A DNA stretch of 64,000 nucleotides from a bacterium (lineage in GTDB: Bacteria; Patescibacteriota; Doudnabacteria; UBA920; 2-01-FULL-46-14). Shown piece by piece: positions 3,273 to 45,879 of this stretch (its first letter is position 1; every line of letters begins with the position of its first letter). Position numbers and translations under genes: made by a program. The DNA lies in assembly GCA_030700065.1 (NCBI GenBank), contig JAUYKH010000003.1, positions 2,876-66,875 of the forward strand, in the 5' to 3' direction. The notes beneath the pieces are model-generated. The model did no database searches, was not told the origin of the DNA, and saw only the letters and a program-made list of their open reading frames with translations.

Positions 3273-4484
3273 GTGTCCATTTTTTATAATATGGCCGATT
3301 CAATCCAATCAATGAGTGAGTTGGTGCAGGACGAGAAAGCCCTGCGGATTTTGCATGAGGGCGATGTCATCCATGGCCGGATTTTAAGCGTGGGGAAAAA
3401 CGAAGTCTATGTGGATGTGGAAGGTGTCGGGGTTGGGGTCGTCCGCGGGCGTGAATTGTATGACGATGAACAAGTTCTTTCTTCGCTCAAAGTCGCCGAC
3501 GAAGTTTACGCTTCAGTGGTTGAAATTGACAATCGCGAGGGGAATATCGAGCTTTCCTTCCGCAAAGCGGGTCAGGAAAGGGTCTGGCAGAGCCTCATGG
3601 AAAAACTGGAGAGCAAAGAGACCGTCACCACCAAGATTCTCGAGGCCAACAAGGGCGGTTTGATGGTGAAAATAAACAGCGTGGTCGGATTTTTGCCCGT
3701 TTCCCAACTTTCGCCCGCCCACTATCCGCGAGTCGAGGATGGCGATAAAAACAAGATTTTGTCGGTTTTGCGCGGGTATATCGGGCAGGATTTTGATGTT
3801 CGGATCATCACTGTTGAGCAGGAGGGCGAAAAATTAATCGTTTCCGAGCGAGCGGTGACCGAGGACGAACTGATGCAGAAGATCAGCAAGCTCTCCATCG
3901 GCGATGTGGTGGAGGGGGTTGTTACCGGCGTGGTCAATTTTGGAGCGTTCGTAAAATTTGGGGATGATCTGGAAGGTCTGGTGCATATTTCTGAACTGGC
4001 CTGGCAGCGCATTGAGGACCCGAAAACTATCATCCAGGTCGGCAACAAAGTCAAAGCGCAGATCATCGCGATTGACAATGATCGCATCAGTTTATCCCTC
4101 AAGCGTCTGCAAAAAGATCCGTGGGAGGACGCGGTCAAAAAATACCGAATCGGACAAGTGGTTCAGGGCAAAGTCCTCAAATTAGCTAGTTTCGGCGCCT
4201 TTGTGGAACTGGATCAGGATATTCAGGGTTTGGCGCACATTGGCGAGCTGACCGACAAAAAAGTTCAGGATGCGTCCGAAGTTTTGAAGGAAGGCGAGAC
4301 CTGCGAGTTTAAGATTATCTCCATTGAACCGGCCGAACATCGGCTGGGGCTGTCAATCAAAGCGCTGAAAAACGCGGAGCCCCTGGCCGCCGCCCCGGAA
4401 CAGCCAAAGGAAGAAACTGCCGAGGCCAAAATCGAGCCCCCCAAAGAGGAAATAAAAGAAAAAACCGAAGAGACGAAAGTCTAA
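3273..4484 (+). CDS. rpsA: ribosomal protein S1-like protein with four S1 RNA-binding domains
   Basis: Repeated S1 motifs are present, for example GDVVEGVVTGVVNFGAFVKFGDDLEGLVHISELAW. The C-terminal tail is acidic and lysine-rich. The start is uncertain: GTG at 3273 or ATG at 3291. Confidence 0.8.
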   Translation: MSIFYNMADSIQSMSELVQDEKALRILHEGDVIHGRILSVGKNEVYVDVEGVGVGVVRGRELYDDEQVLSSLKVADEVYASVVEIDNREGNIELSFRKAGQERVWQSLMEKLESKETVTTKILEANKGGLMVKINSVVGFLPVSQLSPAHYPRVEDGDKNKILSVLRGYIGQDFDVRIITVEQEGEKLIVSERAVTEDELMQKISKLSIGDVVEGVVTGVVNFGAFVKFGDDLEGLVHISELAWQRIEDPKTIIQVGNKVKAQIIAIDNDRISLSLKRLQKDPWEDAVKKYRIGQVVQGKVLKLASFGAFVELDQDIQGLAHIGELTDKKVQDASEVLKEGETCEFKIISIEPAEHRLGLSIKALKNAEPLAAAPEQPKEETAEAKIEPPKEEIKEKTEETKV

Positions 4485-4508
4485 AATTTAGGTTATAATA
4501 CAAGCAAA

Positions 4509-4582
4509 GGCGTGAGGGCCGGGCGGCCAGGCAAAGGTCTGCAAAACCTTTTAGACGGGTTCAACTCCCGTTCACGCCTCCA
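4509..4582 (+). tRNA. tRNA-Cys (anticodon GCA)
   Basis: Hand-folded cloverleaf. Acceptor GGCGTGA pairs with TCACGCC. The anticodon arm is AAGGT-CTGCAAA-ACCTT, and the T-arm is ACGGG-TTCAACT-CCCGT. Discriminator U and an encoded CCA follow. Confidence 0.8.
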
Positions 4583-4588
4583 AGCATC

Positions 4589-4664
4589 AGGTCTGTGTCG
4601 CTACGCGACATCTGGCGAAGCCATGACAAAACCCTTATTCACGGGTTTGATTCCCGTCCTGGCC
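4589..4664 (+). ncRNA. tRNA-derived structured element X (tRNA-sized, lacks acceptor 5' strand and D-arm; degenerate T-loop)
   Basis: Element X shares AGGTCTG, CAAAACC, a T-arm-like hairpin ACGGG-7nt-CCCGT and an acceptor-3'-like heptamer with tRNA-Cys. Two extra hairpins are inserted where the anticodon loop would be. Confidence 0.4.
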
Positions 4665-4674
4665 TTAGCGAGAA

Positions 4675-4748
4675 AGGTCTGTGTCCCTGCGGGACATCTC
4701 CCGAAGGGAGACAAAACCGCGTACACGGGTGAGACTCCCGTTCAGGCC
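4675..4748 (+). ncRNA. tRNA-derived structured element Y (paralogue of X)
   Basis: Y has the same architecture as X. Its hairpin stems carry compensatory changes relative to X: GTCGC/GCGAC becomes GTCCC/GGGAC, and TGGC/GCCA becomes TCTCCC/GGGAGA. Confidence 0.4.
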
Positions 4749-4757
4749 TTTTGGAAA

Positions 4758-4843
4758 GCCCGGGTGGTGGAATGGTTTACACAGAGGACTTAAAATCCTT
4801 GACCCTAACGGGTTTGTGGGTTCGACTCCCACCCCGGGCACCA
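4758..4843 (+). tRNA. tRNA-Leu (anticodon TAA), long variable arm, encoded CCA
   Basis: Acceptor GCCCGGG pairs with CCCGGGC. The anticodon loop is CTTAAAA, the variable arm is long, and the T-arm is GTGGG-TTCGACT-CCCAC. Confidence 0.8.
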
Positions 4844-4909
4844 AATGTAACTTGTTCGGAATTGACTGCTCCGCCCACCGTCCGCTCGGCGGTTGAAGCA
4901 TATTGAATT

Positions 4910-5665
4910 TTGGGGAAAGGTTTTTTGAATATGTATAATGGAAAACGTATTTTTATTATATTTCTCGGGGTGTGGCTTTTACTTTCGACATTCGCAGTAA
5001 CTCTATTTTCGTTAGGCAATCCAATAATGCGCGCGGTTATAGGAATGGCGTGGGGAGTTATTGTTTTTTGGATTATGATTTGCGGTAGCCTTATGTATCG
5101 TTTTCGCGAACCAATTCGAAACGCTGTAATAAAAATTCGACTTCCTTGGCAGATAAAATTCGTTCTTTTTGTAACCCTCCTCGCGCTTCTCGAAGAGACA
5201 ATCACCACAACAATGACGAACCTCGCGCCGGTTTTTGGTGTAAAGATTGGGGAAGCATATATTACCGCGTCTGCAAATTTTTTTGATGTTGTATTTTTCC
5301 ACAGTGCCATCAATTTTATAGGTCCTTTTATTTTTTGGGCACTTGCGCTTCAGCGATATAATTTTAGCCCATTCGCCGCATTTCTCACCTTTGGAGTTAG
5401 CGGTGTATTCGCAGAAGTATCGTTTAGCGGCCCACAGCATTTTTCAGAATTTGGGTTCTGGATTTTTGTCTACGGACTTATGATTTTTCTCCCCGCTTAT
5501 TCGCTCCCTTCAGCAGAAGCGCGCGGCGCGCGACCGGCAAAATTTTATCACTACATTCTGATGATATTTTTGCCAGCGCTTTTTGTTCCCTTATTTGCAT
5601 GGATTCCAAAAGTAATTGACCCCGCTCACCCGCAACCAACACATTTTTTACCGCTTAAACCTTGA
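4910..5665 (+). CDS. integral membrane protein, multi-pass, unknown function
   Basis: The 251-aa ORF is AT-rich with several hydrophobic segments. A hairpin lies downstream. Confidence 0.6.
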   Translation: MGKGFLNMYNGKRIFIIFLGVWLLLSTFAVTLFSLGNPIMRAVIGMAWGVIVFWIMICGSLMYRFREPIRNAVIKIRLPWQIKFVLFVTLLALLEETITTTMTNLAPVFGVKIGEAYITASANFFDVVFFHSAINFIGPFIFWALALQRYNFSPFAAFLTFGVSGVFAEVSFSGPQHFSEFGFWIFVYGLMIFLPAYSLPSAEARGARPAKFYHYILMIFLPALFVPLFAWIPKVIDPAHPQPTHFLPLKP

Positions 5666-29696: not shown

Positions 29697-29790
29697 CGAG
29701 GCCCTATCGTCCCCGCCTGACGGCCGGCAGGTAGTCTGGTCTAGCCCTCCGGAGGAGGGTCCGCCTCCGGCGGAGACGCCACCTTGAAAA
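29697..29790 (+). repeat. insertion-bearing partial duplicate of the tRNA-Glu 5' half (GAGGCCCTATCGTC ... TAGTCTGGTCTAG ... GACGCCA)
   Basis: Blocks identical to tRNA-Glu positions 1-30 are interrupted by two GC-rich hairpin-forming insertions. The region lies about 330 bp upstream of the intact tRNA-Glu. Confidence 0.5.
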
Positions 29791-30029
29791 ATGTATTATT
29801 TATACATCATTCAAAGCACAATAAAAGAGTGGAGATATATCGGCAGCACGGCCGACATAACCGAAAGAGTTGCTGAACACAATGCCGGTAAGGTAAGATA
29901 AACCAAGCCTTACAGGCCACTAAAGCTGGTGCATACGGAAACCTTTAGAGATAAAACATCGGCTCGTAAGCGGGAAATATTTTTAAAAAGGACTGCGAAA
30001 GCACGGAAAGATTTGTTTAAAGAAATTGA
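29791..30029 (+). pseudogene. GIY-YIG nuclease family protein (small T5orf172/UPF0213-like) with an in-frame TAA at 29899..29901
   Basis: Hand translation gives MYYLYIIQSTIKEWRYIGSTADITERVAEHNAGKVR*TKPYRPLKLVHTETFRDKTSARKREIFLKRTAKARKDLFKEI. The frame runs into the tRNA-Glu gene. Confidence 0.5.
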
Positions 30030-30107
30030 GGCCCTATCGTCTAGTCTGGTCTAGGACGCCAGGTTTTCATCCTGGTAACCCGGGTTCGAATCCCGGTGGG
30101 GCTACCA
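30030..30107 (+). tRNA. tRNA-Glu (anticodon TTC), encoded CCA
   Basis: Hand-folded. The anticodon arm is CCAGG-TTTTCAT-CCTGG and the T-arm is CCGGG-TTCGAAT-CCCGG. The acceptor GGCCCTA/TGGGGCT has two G-U pairs. The D-arm is GTCT...GGAC. Confidence 0.75.
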
Positions 30108-31593
30108 AATCCGATTTTTGTTTCTGATAATCCTGATTTAGTTGATAGATAGGCGACAATTTGGCGGTTCCAAATTGCCGGCCATCAAATTTAACTTTCC
30201 CTTTGAAGATTCTCTGCTGAAAGCGTAACCGAGCCAAATAATCCGGTTCCAATTCCAGCCAAGTCTTGGCCGTGTTTCTCACAAATTTAAAGCAGTAGTC
30301 CAAGGTCTCTTCCATATCAAACTCCTCGTCTGCCTTTTCCCGGATAAGCAGGCGTTTTTGATTTATGCGCTCGTTTACCAAATTTTTTTGCTCCTCAAAT
30401 TCCTCATCCGTATATTTTTTCTGTTGGTGAAATTCAAAAATTTTCTGACGTTGCTGTTCCAAAATCGCTATGTCTTTCCGGATTACGGCGTTTTGCCCGT
30501 CCAGCCGCTTGTAATTGTTTTTCCAGATATCGATCATCACGGCCTTAAAAATTTTTTCATATCTGGGACTTGGGGTGATGCTGTCCAAATACTCCACAAA
30601 AAACTGCTCAAACGTTTCTTTGGGGATAAATTTGGTTTTGTCGCATCCCTGTTTTTGGTGATGGTAATAAGCGTATTTTTGGCTCCTGCCACGGCTTTGG
30701 CTGCCAGTCAGCGACTTATCGCACAAATCGCAAACAACCAACTTGCGCAGCGGAAACAACGGATTGTTTATAGAGTGTGGCCGCGGCCCGGCCGAGATTT
30801 TTCCAAATCCGGGCTGGCAACTAGCAAAAAGATTTTTGGATACAATCGGCTCAAAACTCCCTTCGTATTCCTTGCCCCAAATTTTGATGATCCCGCAATA
30901 CAATGGATTTTTTAGAATTTTTTCCATGAGTTGTTGACACGGAACGGATCCGAAACTGGTTCTGAATCCTCGACTGGTCAAAAGTTCGGCTAGACTTTTG
31001 AAAGTATGCTCGCCTTTGGCCCATTCCTCAAAAATCATTTTGACAAAATGGGCGGAATTAGGATCAGGGGCGATATTGTTACTTTTTGCTGGCCGATAGT
31101 ACCCAACCGGGCATTTCCAGACCCATACTCCTTGTTTAATTCTTTCCAACATACCCTGCACCGTGCGTTCGGTACGCATGTTGTTATCCAACTCCGCAAA
31201 TAATGAAAGCATCTGTCCAAAGGCAATACCAGACGGGCCAGTGCCATACGGTTCTGTAACTGATATTAGCTCTGTGCCGGCCTGCACAAGTAGGTCTTTG
31301 ATGTCAATATAGTCTTTAAGACGGCGGGCAAATCGATCCAGTTTGTAGACAATAAAAACACTAATTTTGTTTTTATTGTCTTTGCAGCGGTTGATTGCCT
31401 TTGTGAATTCTGTCCGGTCGGCAGTTTTTGCTGACTCCCCGCGCTCAACAAACACTTTTAAAACCTTGATGTTTTGCCGCTCCGCGTATTCCCGGCACAG
31501 TCGCTCCTGGCTTGCCAAACTGGTGCCCTCAAGCTGGTCATAGGAGCTCACCCGGCAATAAATCACCCCTGTTTTTTGAGTTGTCTGCGTCAT
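30067..31593 (-). CDS. large serine recombinase (resolvase catalytic domain + recombinase domain + zinc ribbon), integrase of element 1
   Basis: The N-terminus VIYCRVSSYDQ carries the catalytic serine. A Cys-rich segment CDLCDKSL...C is present. The last 14 codons (DLVAPPGFEPGLPG) are the reverse complement of the tRNA-Glu T-arm and acceptor. Confidence 0.85.
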   Translation of the reverse strand: MTQTTQKTGVIYCRVSSYDQLEGTSLASQERLCREYAERQNIKVLKVFVERGESAKTADRTEFTKAINRCKDNKNKISVFIVYKLDRFARRLKDYIDIKDLLVQAGTELISVTEPYGTGPSGIAFGQMLSLFAELDNNMRTERTVQGMLERIKQGVWVWKCPVGYYRPAKSNNIAPDPNSAHFVKMIFEEWAKGEHTFKSLAELLTSRGFRTSFGSVPCQQLMEKILKNPLYCGIIKIWGKEYEGSFEPIVSKNLFASCQPGFGKISAGPRPHSINNPLFPLRKLVVCDLCDKSLTGSQSRGRSQKYAYYHHQKQGCDKTKFIPKETFEQFFVEYLDSITPSPRYEKIFKAVMIDIWKNNYKRLDGQNAVIRKDIAILEQQRQKIFEFHQQKKYTDEEFEEQKNLVNERINQKRLLIREKADEEFDMEETLDYCFKFVRNTAKTWLELEPDYLARLRFQQRIFKGKVKFDGRQFGTAKLSPIYQLNQDYQKQKSDLVAPPGFEPGLPG

Positions 31594-37714: not shown

Positions 37715-38380
37715 TTAATAAATAGGTTTATTATTAAAGGCAATGTTGGTATCTCCAATAAGTTTATTTGTGCCGCCAGTACTGGCCTGTTTCATGAGCG
37801 ATTCTAGACCTCCGAATTCCTTATCGCCAAAGTAGGTATCGGTTTTATTTTGCATCGCCCTAGTAAAATCTCCCAGTGCCTCATCATATCGGCCCACTTT
37901 TAAGAAACAATAGCCCCGTTCTACCAACCCCCAACATAAACCATTAATTGCATCAGGCCCGCCAACAAACTTTAATCCAGTTGTGTAGTCAATTATGGCT
38001 TTGTCATACAGACCCTGCAGTCGGTATATTTCACCTTTTCTGTAAAAAGCTTGATAGTAGTCTGGCCGGGACAAAATCGCGTAATCTAACCATTTTAGCG
38101 CGTTATTAAAATCGTTCGCATATAAAAAATTCTGAACGGCCACTTTATATGCCGCAAGGCCGACTGACCCTAAACTTGCGCAAAAAACAGCTTCTTGTTG
38201 TAGCCCTAACCTTTCGAGTTCACAAATGATTATTTTTTGAATATCTTGTTCTTGCATACTTGTATTGGTGGAAGCCGCCCGGCTAACACAAAACCCCGTG
38301 TCAGCTGGCCTTGCGGCCCATAACCCTTTCGGGCTATGACTCGTTGAAAAGTTGCTGAACGCGGGGTTCACTGTTTTCAA
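37715..38380 (-). CDS. TPR-repeat protein; probable true start at 38257 (MQEQ), with the ORF-track N-terminus running through repeat copy 1
   Basis: TPR-like helices are present (YYQAFYRKGEIYRLQGLYDKAIIDY). The first 41 codons coincide with the 88-bp repeat element. Confidence 0.5.
   Translation of the reverse strand: MKTVNPAFSNFSTSHSPKGLWAARPADTGFCVSRAASTNTSMQEQDIQKIIICELERLGLQQEAVFCASLGSVGLAAYKVAVQNFLYANDFNNALKWLDYAILSRPDYYQAFYRKGEIYRLQGLYDKAIIDYTTGLKFVGGPDAINGLCWGLVERGYCFLKVGRYDEALGDFTRAMQNKTDTYFGDKEFGGLESLMKQASTGGTNKLIGDTNIAFNNKPIY
38283..38370 (-). repeat. 88-bp self-hairpin repeat, copy 1 (about 92% identical to copy 2 at 45792..45879, inverted orientation)
   Basis: Outer stem AACCCCGCGTTCAGC/GCTGACACGGGGTT and internal GNRA-loop hairpins. 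Based on my hand alignment of the two copies. Confidence 0.6.
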
Positions 38381-38520
38381 CGAGTTTTTCCTGCCATGCC
38401 CCAGTTATGGAGTTTAGGCCGTATTCAATTGTACTCGAATTATACGCCCGCGCTTTTTACTTATCAAGTGAAAAGTGGTAAAATAATACGACTAATTATA
38501 CTAAATACTAACTATAACAG

Positions 38521-45543: not shown

Positions 45544-45791
45544 AGTATAAAGTTAATAATTTCCCTTATTTTACAGGAAACGGCGTAAAAGAGTAATAGG
45601 CTGACGCATATGACACGCATTCCCTAACGCAATAGGGATAGACATACATGAACCAAAAAGTGCTCCAAACGGCCGTTTTTCGTCAAATAACAGCTATTTA
45701 TGAATTAAGCAGGAAGTTATATAATAAAAATGACAATTAAGCCTAAACCTTTGAAAATGAGGCATGGCACAAAAAACTCATGGAAGATACT

Positions 45792-45879
45792 GAACCCCGC
45801 GTTCAGCAACTCTTCCATGAGTCATATCCCGAAAGGGCTATGGGCCGAAAGGCTAGCTGACACGGGGTTTTGTGTTACC
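45792..45879 (+). repeat. 88-bp self-hairpin repeat, copy 2
   Basis: See copy 1. The track ORF 45730..45927 is merely a translation of this element. Confidence 0.6.

Follow-up and report, generated by a model that had tools for sequence, protein, structure and literature searches.

SegB of phages T4 and T6 is a free-standing GIY-YIG homing endonuclease that is encoded in a tRNA cluster and cuts inside tRNA genes; it is reported to favour the inheritance of its own tRNA region and to cause tandem amplification that depends on recombination (PMC2330249; PMC13096335). In the arrangement termed 'fractured genes', an essential gene lies in two pieces around a free-standing homing endonuclease gene (PMC2677866), and the rRNA genes of bacteria of the Candidate Phyla Radiation (CPR) are reported to be invaded by endonuclease-encoding insertions (PMC11270868). 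Furthermore, partial tRNA copies derived from integrative elements are missed or miscalled by annotation tools (PMC9897764). Here we describe a 64,000-nucleotide stretch of a Doudnabacteria genome (contig JAUYKH010000003.1; hereafter the window) in which two tRNA-sized elements, each with a double-hairpin module in place of the anticodon loop, lie between the genes for tRNA-Cys and tRNA-Leu. The elements are probably leftovers of earlier tRNA-Cys alleles that were serially replaced by mobile nuclease cassettes. As with SegB, a GIY-YIG nuclease gene is found among tRNA genes and, as with the rRNA insertions, it is conserved RNA genes of the same organism group that are invaded.

The two elements, their modules and the intact genes on either side are arranged as follows, in window coordinates.

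4509-4582, + strand: intact tRNA-Cys(GCA), with a GGCGTGA-type acceptor and encoded CCA (ARAGORN; Rfam tRNA, 48.3 bits)
4589-4664, + strand: element 1, a 76-nt 5'-truncated tRNA-Cys pseudogene (3' fragment), from sequence and 3'-half matching
4596-4626, + strand: 31-nt double-hairpin module of element 1, between G34 and C35, from sequence
4675-4748, + strand: element 2, a second 5'-truncated tRNA-Cys pseudogene, 74 nt, from sequence and 3'-half matching
4682-4711, + strand: 30-nt double-hairpin module of element 2, between G34 and C35, from sequence
4758-4843, + strand: intact tRNA-Leu(TAA), the kept partner 3' of tRNA-Cys (ARAGORN, Rfam)

Element 1 consists, in order, of AGGTCTG, a 31-nt insert, CAAAACC, the T-arm hairpin ACGGG-TTTGATT-CCCGT and CCTGGCC, the last being the acceptor 3' strand; element 2 consists of AGGTCTG, a 30-nt insert, CAAAACC, the T-arm hairpin ACGGG-TGAGACT-CCCGT and the acceptor 3' strand TCAGGCC. 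Neither is a canonical tRNA, as both begin at the 5' strand of the anticodon stem, lack the acceptor 5' strand and the D arm, and have the anticodon loop replaced by 30/31 nt. Three base pairs of the anticodon stem, read off the sequence, are left in each. The elements had been noticed in an initial annotation made from the DNA letters alone, and all of the strings quoted there were found at their positions, as were the sizes of 76 and 74 nt, the start at AGGTCTG without acceptor 5' strand or D arm, and the 9 nt between element 2 and tRNA-Leu. Element 1 had been placed directly after the CCA of tRNA-Cys, and here the order holds but 6 nt (AGCATC) intervene; a further 10 nt separate element 1 from element 2. 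The derivation from tRNA-Cys proposed there was also borne out, with the 38-nt 3' parts of the elements being 71% and 79% identical, in register, to the 3' part of tRNA-Cys. The tandem layout has a period of 84-86 nt, and the 25-nt 5' pattern of the elements has 2 matches in the window versus 0 in 100 shuffles. The check suggested at the outset, by ARAGORN and Infernal/Rfam, left the spacer (4583-4757) without a call, whether at the gathering score or with E values of up to 10, the Rfam 15 matches within the elements being at chance level only (mir-2300, E = 3.2; serC leader, E = 6.9). No further copies were found in the window beyond the tRNA-Glu locus described below.

Each 3' half is most similar to a functional tRNA-Cys of another genome (comparison loci are designated by L numbers). 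For element 1 the best match is the functional tRNA-Cys of L006 (33/38), and its CCTGGCCTTAG end and trailer are common to L081-83; for element 2 it is the AGGTCTGG-type tRNA-Cys of L084-L089 (34/37), with L005 at 32/37. The T loop of each element is one substitution from that of its nearest functional allele. Because the best matches are to two different functional alleles, the elements would be remnants of two alleles and not of a local duplication, and on these alignments elements 1 and 2 can be identified as dead copies, truncated at the 5' end, of two distinct tRNA-Cys alleles, both of which function in other Doudnabacteria. One candidate reading of AGGTCTG, as a new acceptor 5' strand closing a cloverleaf, was prompted by a 9-bp helix in element 2 and by the AGGTCTGG-type acceptor in L084/L005. 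It was dropped because 5' halves from metagenomes, comprising acceptor, D arm and anticodon stem, directly precede the same insert; this bears out the original view of AGGTCTG as the anticodon-stem strand.

A metagenome scan with the pattern GGTCTGTGTC-N7-GACATCT-N6-20-CAAAACC returned ten contigs, and these, the loci fetched through GIY-YIG homologs and the window together supply at least 17 distinct contexts from groundwater CPR metagenomes (window included) in which a tRNA-Cys fragment carries the module. In all 17 the module stands in the setting TCTG-module-CAAA, between G34 and C35, in agreement with the earlier placement of the hairpins exactly in the anticodon loop, and it consists of two abutting 6-bp GC-rich triloop hairpins spanning 30/31 nt. 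Two forms of broken copy carry it: 5' halves, which run from the acceptor through the D arm and anticodon stem to the module and CAAAAC and precede an intact tRNA-Cys, and 3' fragments like those of the window, 3-18 nt downstream of an intact tRNA-Cys and arranged in tandem arrays in L100/104/108. This division, with 5' halves upstream and 3' halves downstream of the intact gene, holds in many CPR genomes as judged by sequence comparison, and the number of module-bearing fragments varies from 0 to 3 or more, on either side of the tRNA. A single near full-length module-bearing copy is known, in L107, with 2 mismatches in its 7 acceptor pairs; this short contig is also the one exception to the presence of an intact tRNA-Cys beside the fragments at every locus with flanks present. 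The 34|35 region is wrecked by the module or by a deletion in every dead copy inspected, and similar modules occur in the D loops and T loops of dead copies, some of them inverted. Within 732 kb (the window plus ~670 kb of related loci), GC-rich double-hairpin modules are found solely at or adjoining tRNA-Cys/Leu loci and in the window tRNA-Glu copy. Between the intact tRNA-Cys and the downstream fragment there is often a GAGGC or GGGGCG (L102, L103, L105, L116), complementary to the GCCTC end of the preceding tRNA and of the fragment itself.

Across 13 distinct modules, 156/156 pair cells hold a standard base pair and 5/12 pairs are changed on both sides (18 cells); no shuffle among 500 matches the observed value, and slid registers are 31-54% paired. 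This stem covariation bears out the early suggestion that both hairpins are under selection for pairing. One U.G pair is present on the sense strand among the modules, in L108. The modules fall into two subtypes, one of 31 nt with a bulged pyrimidine and one of 30 nt without it, and each is represented in the window: element 1 has TGTCGC-TAC-GCGACA followed by TCTGGC-GAA-GCCA(T)GA, with a bulged T, and element 2 has TGTCCC-TGC-GGGACA followed by TCTCCC-GAA-GGGAGA. L105 and the D loop of L111 also have the bulged subtype, and L004 and L101 have it inverted. The element 2 module recurs identically in L101 and near-identically in L099, L100, L102, L103, L106, L107 and L108. The differences between the two window copies had been read as compensatory substitutions and they are real, but since the bulged subtype recurs in several contexts they amount to family-level variation, tracing to two pre-existing subtypes and not to compensation in place. 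Furthermore, the first loop is T-N-Y and the second R-N-A, so that the module is dyad-symmetric as duplex DNA, and in L127 it is exactly its own reverse complement. As a 30-nt palindrome with clean covariation, the module is a new conserved motif, and no description of the arrangement was found in the literature. Three other accounts of the module were tried and rejected. A hammerhead or other small ribozyme is disfavored, besides Rfam, by the junction strands (CUGU / none / CAAA), which do not suit the hammerhead core; an origin by P-nucleotide or fold-back repair failed on inspection, because the tRNA sequence on either side is not repeated in inverted form in the stems; and a two-ended IS200/IS605-type mini-element was discarded, the module being too small, the target sites differing and no transposase being seen.

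The module is associated with genes for small predicted nucleases. In L102, L103, L106 and L108, an 81-87-aa GIY-YIG (PF01541) open reading frame (ORF) lies between the 5' copy and the intact tRNA-Cys, and at loci with flanks present the module is usually found 8-26 nt 5' of an 80-87-aa GIY-YIG gene whose end abuts or overlaps the intact tRNA-Cys. A protein search for GIY-YIG homologs gave 124 matches (CPR lineages), and the corresponding loci, which were fetched by protein alone and independently of the DNA motif, form six distinct locus groups. In five of these (L109/110, L111, L112-115, L116-119, L127) the ORF immediately precedes an intact tRNA-Cys and often extends into its 5' end. In four of the five (L109, L111, L112, L127), the ATG is preceded at 11-31 nt by a 5' copy with the module; in L116-119 the module is in the downstream fragment instead. 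The sixth group (L124-126), from a Bacteroidetes metagenome-assembled genome (MAG), encodes an 83-aa homolog (47% identical) that overlaps tRNA-Arg(ACG), and an upstream 5' copy of tRNA-Arg is split by a 20-nt palindrome, so that the design extends beyond CPR bacteria and beyond tRNA-Cys. The protein has weak similarity to the I-TevI catalytic domain, UPF0213 proteins and SLX1, and seems to be among the smallest nucleases known. Because the module travels with GIY-YIG genes and with broken tRNA-Cys copies to either side of an intact gene, it fits debris of a mobile element better than a cellular RNA. The roles first offered for the elements, as processing or spacer modules, tRNA-mimic decoys or split-tRNA halves, found no support. 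In L106, L109 and L116, the GIY-YIG frame runs into the tRNA-Cys gene, with the last 5-7 codons and the stop (TAA in the D loop, GGTAA) lying within the 5' part of the tRNA.

A second locus in the window has the same cassette design as that seen at tRNA-Cys, namely a 5' copy, a GIY-YIG ORF and an intact tRNA, in this case at tRNA-Glu (29700-30107).

29700-29781, + strand: 5' copy of tRNA-Glu, made up of GGCCCTATCGTC, a 20-nt palindromic insert, TAGTCTGGTCTAG, a 30-nt module and GACGCCA
29745-29774, + strand: 30-nt double-hairpin module within the tRNA-Glu 5' copy, from sequence
29791-30027, + strand: GIY-YIG-like ORF with an in-frame TAA at codon 37, from tblastn and translation
30030-30107, + strand: intact tRNA-Glu(TTC), directly after the GIY-YIG remnant (ARAGORN, Rfam)

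The ORF is 36-44% identical (tblastn) to the tRNA-Cys-linked GIY-YIG proteins and, given the in-frame TAA, is probably a decayed nuclease gene. On the opposite strand lies a gene for a 508-aa large serine recombinase (30067-31593, - strand; Resolvase, Recombinase and zinc-ribbon domains). The 3' ends of this gene and of tRNA-Glu overlap, which suggests an integrated element at this tRNA.

Presence/absence polymorphism and mosaic flanks, as expected of a homing cassette, are found among close relatives, where four states of the Cys-Leu locus occur behind a 88-100% identical S1 protein gene. In L081-083, whose S1 protein is 96% identical, a different tRNA-Cys is separated from tRNA-Leu by 4 nt with no elements, and is preceded by an 8-nt remnant, GGCGTGAG, of a window-type gene. 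In L090/092/093 (S1 88% identical) the window's tRNA-Cys is followed by 14 nt and then tRNA-Leu. With the same 88%-identical S1 protein, L084-089 and L094-095 have a window-type tRNA-Cys that is broken after C35. Beyond the break lie, in order, the 3' terminus of a second tRNA-Cys, a AGGTCTGG-type tRNA-Cys that is complete, one more fragment whose T loop holds a double hairpin and, last, the original 3' end. The fourth state is the window itself, with tRNA-Cys and two elements. Such differing states behind one S1 protein imply that the Cys-Leu locus turns over within species. Similarly, three alleles are found behind a 98-100% identical RbfA, one with GIY-YIG and two with LAGLIDADG, the latter gene lying in two different positions; each allele has its own distinct tRNA-Cys and tRNA-Leu, and the flanks converge at the rbfA end and, for L112 and L121, also right after tRNA-Leu. 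The elements as wholes are unconserved at the Cys/Leu locus of relatives, the outcome that had been named as a refutation at the outset, but the inserted module is conserved.

HNH and DUF559 genes are present elsewhere in the same Cys-Leu spacer, and the LAGLIDADG, HNH and DUF559 genes of the locus are without double-hairpin modules. By these comparisons the Cys-Leu locus is hypervariable, is occupied by five nuclease families and differs between genomes that are near-identical. In CPR bacteria, at least five nuclease families thus appear to contest a tRNA gene that is essential and single-copy, and it is this contest that would leave close relatives with unrelated tRNA-Cys alleles and mosaic junctions. 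In L087 and L089 (~4446-4951) there is in addition a chimeric tRNA-Leu, which joins a resident 5' half to a foreign 3' half, has a non-matching acceptor and is not called by ARAGORN. It is followed by a DUF559 nuclease gene between long GC-rich hairpins, and hairpin-flanked DUF559 units are also found in the Cys-Leu spacer of L005, L006 and L101.

Comparison with the described systems brings out both likeness and difference. The tandem arrays of fragments in the window, L100/104/108 and L101 resemble amplification products of the kind reported for SegB. The present system differs from SegB in residing in cellular CPR genomes, with neither module nor GIY-YIG relative in the IMG/VR viral contigs searched, which gives no indication of a viral origin; in a protein of 80-87 aa that is the catalytic domain alone; and in cassettes flanked by broken copies of the target tRNA, which carry the conserved palindromic double-hairpin module, a feature not described for SegB. 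The CPR rRNA insertions reportedly sit within the rRNA gene and are taken out of its transcript, whereas here the broken gene is unrestored and a complete replacement tRNA gene travels with the nuclease. In 'fractured genes', the broken gene is reportedly rescued by split inteins, at the level of protein, whereas here rescue would be by a second intact copy of the RNA gene. Repetitive extragenic palindromic (REP) sequences and miniature inverted-repeat transposable elements (MITEs) are likewise short GC-rich hairpins, sometimes paired, in either orientation and with a bulged base in one subtype. In contrast to such repeats, the modules are confined to tRNA-Cys/Leu and tRNA-Glu loci in the 64 kb and ~670 kb covered; dispersal of this type was not seen in the 64-kb window, which has three modules, all at tRNA loci, and no RAYT or IS200/IS605 transposase was seen near modules. 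Judged on their sequence features, the elements do not qualify as tRNA, as intron-containing or split tRNA, as an integrase scar or as a dispersed repeat, and they fit the debris of a free-standing nuclease cassette. The nuclease gene to be expected at the site of such a cassette is present at homologous loci and decayed at the window tRNA-Glu, but missing from the window Cys locus.

Other explanations have to be set against the leftover-allele one. The pairing and covariation of both hairpins are what would be expected if the elements were functional structured RNAs, acting either as decoys for tRNA-binding factors or as tRNA-like spacers by which RNase P/Z would be directed in processing the Cys-Leu transcript. 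In addition, the whole spacer folds better than shuffles (z = -3.45), element 2 can be closed by a 9-bp helix (AAAGGUCUG/CAGGCCUUU), a U.G pair is found on the sense strand, and the elements lie within a probable tRNA operon. However, taken singly the elements have only a marginal folding advantage over shuffles (z = -1.7 and -2.3), both retain just 3 bp of anticodon stem, and the closing helix proved inconsistent across the seven downstream fragments folded. An RNA function would not predict dyad symmetry as double-stranded DNA, which is perfect in L127, nor modules that are reversed or placed in the D or T loops of other dead copies. The elements are missing at the same locus in the closest relatives, so that natural alleles without them already exist, and they vary both in number, from none to three or more, and in the side of the tRNA on which they lie; a function in RNA is on balance unlikely. 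An intron-containing or split tRNA-Cys, with the insert removed from RNA or the halves joined in trans, is the least probable reading of all, in spite of an insert in the anticodon loop, where tRNA introns occur, and of separate 5' halves with the same insert in other genomes. The window contains no 5' half partner or complementary acceptor strand in its 64 kb, where only loose chance matches were found, the near full-length copy of L107 has a mismatched acceptor, and an intact tRNA-Cys accompanies the fragments wherever flanks are present, except in L107. Moreover, the insert is far below the size of a group I intron and lies at 34|35, not 37|38.

Two further readings concern how the copies arose. 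Partial 3' copies that sit beside an intact gene and start at the anticodon stem, as the elements do, are what integration into tRNA genes classically leaves behind (tRNA fragments are reviewed in PMC9897764), and serine recombinase genes lie beside tRNA-Glu in the window and tRNA-Cys in L111. The elements could on this basis be attachment-site (att) scars, with integrase-type elements, each bearing a 3' tRNA copy, having entered the anticodon loop of tRNA-Cys and left tandem attR-like fragments after excision or deletion. We regard this as quite improbable, since the Cys locus has no integrase gene and no integrated element between the intact tRNA and the fragments, which are only 6 and 10 nt apart, and since integration scars are without a conserved insert inside the loop. 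The mirror-image 5' copies with the same insert, upstream of nuclease genes, are also unlike integrase sites, as are the occurrence of 5' as well as 3' fragments and the association with nuclease genes. Finally, the tandem layout with its 84-86-nt period and the T-loop substitutions would suit decayed local duplicates of the resident tRNA-Cys in which the hairpins are chance palindromic insertions, but the 3' halves are nearer to two foreign functional alleles than to the resident gene or to each other, the insert lies at the same nucleotide in unrelated CPR genomes, and its stems covary; there is very little likelihood that local duplication is the explanation.

If the elements are leftovers of displaced tRNA-Cys alleles, events might have run as follows. 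A GIY-YIG nuclease would break the resident tRNA-Cys allele, and recombination repair from a cassette-bearing genome would copy in the nuclease gene together with its own tRNA-Cys. Because the cassette brings its own tRNA-Cys, the essential gene is never lost, and pieces of the old tRNA-Cys would stay beside the new gene. At the window Cys locus, the nuclease gene would since have been lost. The weakest step of the mechanism is the role of the module, for which three proposals can be made. By interrupting leftover copies, it could protect them from cutting and leave them too broken up for recombination to remove the nuclease gene, for which the destruction of 34|35 in every inspected dead copy is an indirect hint. 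Alternatively, it could be the nuclease's own structural site; the centre of each module hairpin is C-NNN-G, the cleavage motif of I-TevI. A third role, as a leader structure for the nuclease mRNA, is proposed on account of the constant short distance from module to ATG. For the cell itself, the elements are most likely functionless and simply carried in the tRNA operon transcript.

Several points weigh against this derivation of the elements from nuclease cassettes. No nuclease gene was found at the window Cys locus, with the consequence that the link rests on other genomes and on the window tRNA-Glu locus. The 80-87-aa proteins consist of the catalytic domain alone, with no DNA-binding domain, and are nucleases by prediction. 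Every cassette contains an intact tRNA-Cys, so that if the target lay wholly inside the tRNA the donor would also be cut and would have no immunity. The placement of a 5'-truncated copy 3-18 nt after the new tRNA lacks a stepwise account. In both window modules the stems are flawless while the flanking T loops have changed, and flawless stems could mean ongoing selection, hence some function, rather than pure debris. Lastly, the search pattern left hairpin 2 free but fixed the outer part of hairpin 1, so that the conservation seen in that part is to some extent built in.

A bolder proposal, which we put forward tentatively and hold to be possible but not probable, is that the palindrome and the 80-87-aa GIY-YIG protein together make up a minimal, previously undescribed mobile element, a 'self-healing' parasite of tRNA genes. 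Such an element would break or displace the tRNA gene, carry a replacement and leave the old pieces as flanking homology, and the module with its CNNNG centres would be the recognition or cleavage structure, or an immunity device of the leftover copies. The design would be ancient and general, with examples at tRNA-Cys across CPR bacteria, at the window tRNA-Glu and at tRNA-Arg in the Bacteroidetes MAG. Whichever role the module has, the predicted tRNA-targeting cassette is widespread, has a strikingly conserved module and is apparently undescribed. It would represent a way to target an indispensable gene, in that a spare copy of the displaced gene comes with the element. If module and GIY-YIG protein form a recognition unit, they could provide a compact sequence- or structure-specific tool. 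Fragments of this kind also inflate or confuse tRNA annotation and break assemblies.

The genomes closest to the window are Candidatus Doudnabacteria MAGs (CPR/Patescibacteria), at 73-78% identity. The neighbours of the Cys-Leu locus are genes for GH123, S1, a 251-aa ORF without a Pfam match, a tRNA-binding protein and rpoB; a four-domain S1 protein is encoded upstream, and rpoB lies downstream, of tRNA-Cys/tRNA-Leu. The pairing of these two tRNA genes is kept across Doudnabacteria and other CPR loci, with a spacer of 175 nt in the window and of 2-569 nt across Doudnabacteria. One further feature precedes the tRNA genes.

4494-4499, + strand: TATAAT box 9 nt 5' of tRNA-Cys, from sequence; a possible -10 element of the tRNA operon

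The initial annotation had noted this box at a distance of 10 nt, where 9 nt are counted here. TATAAT or TATACT is found at the same spot in relatives L081-L097 by sequence comparison, and a consensus scan found no full two-hexamer promoter at tRNA-Cys.

Read side by side, the window tRNA-Cys is the same, through the discriminator base, as the tRNA-Cys of the 'empty' alleles L090/L092/L093. The CCA at 4580-4582 is encoded in the window, whereas the otherwise identical gene of L090/L092/L093 continues with TATCG, and the replacement junction thus seemingly follows the discriminator base directly. Just one other contig has the exact S1 protein of the window, L098 (a Logan contig from SRR13727534); it is identical through tRNA-Cys and stops inside element 1, probably at an assembly break caused by the repeated module. 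Elsewhere in the window, two full-length matches to LOOT RNA (RF03000) are found on opposite strands ~7 kb apart, at 38307-38420 (- strand) and 45740-45854 (+ strand), with 72.9 and 76.4 bits. U55 is near-universal in tRNA T loops. In the apparently functional Doudnabacteria tRNA-Cys of L003, L004, L005, L020, L035 and L084, the T loop is TGCAAxT or TGCGACT, with G in place of the expected U55.

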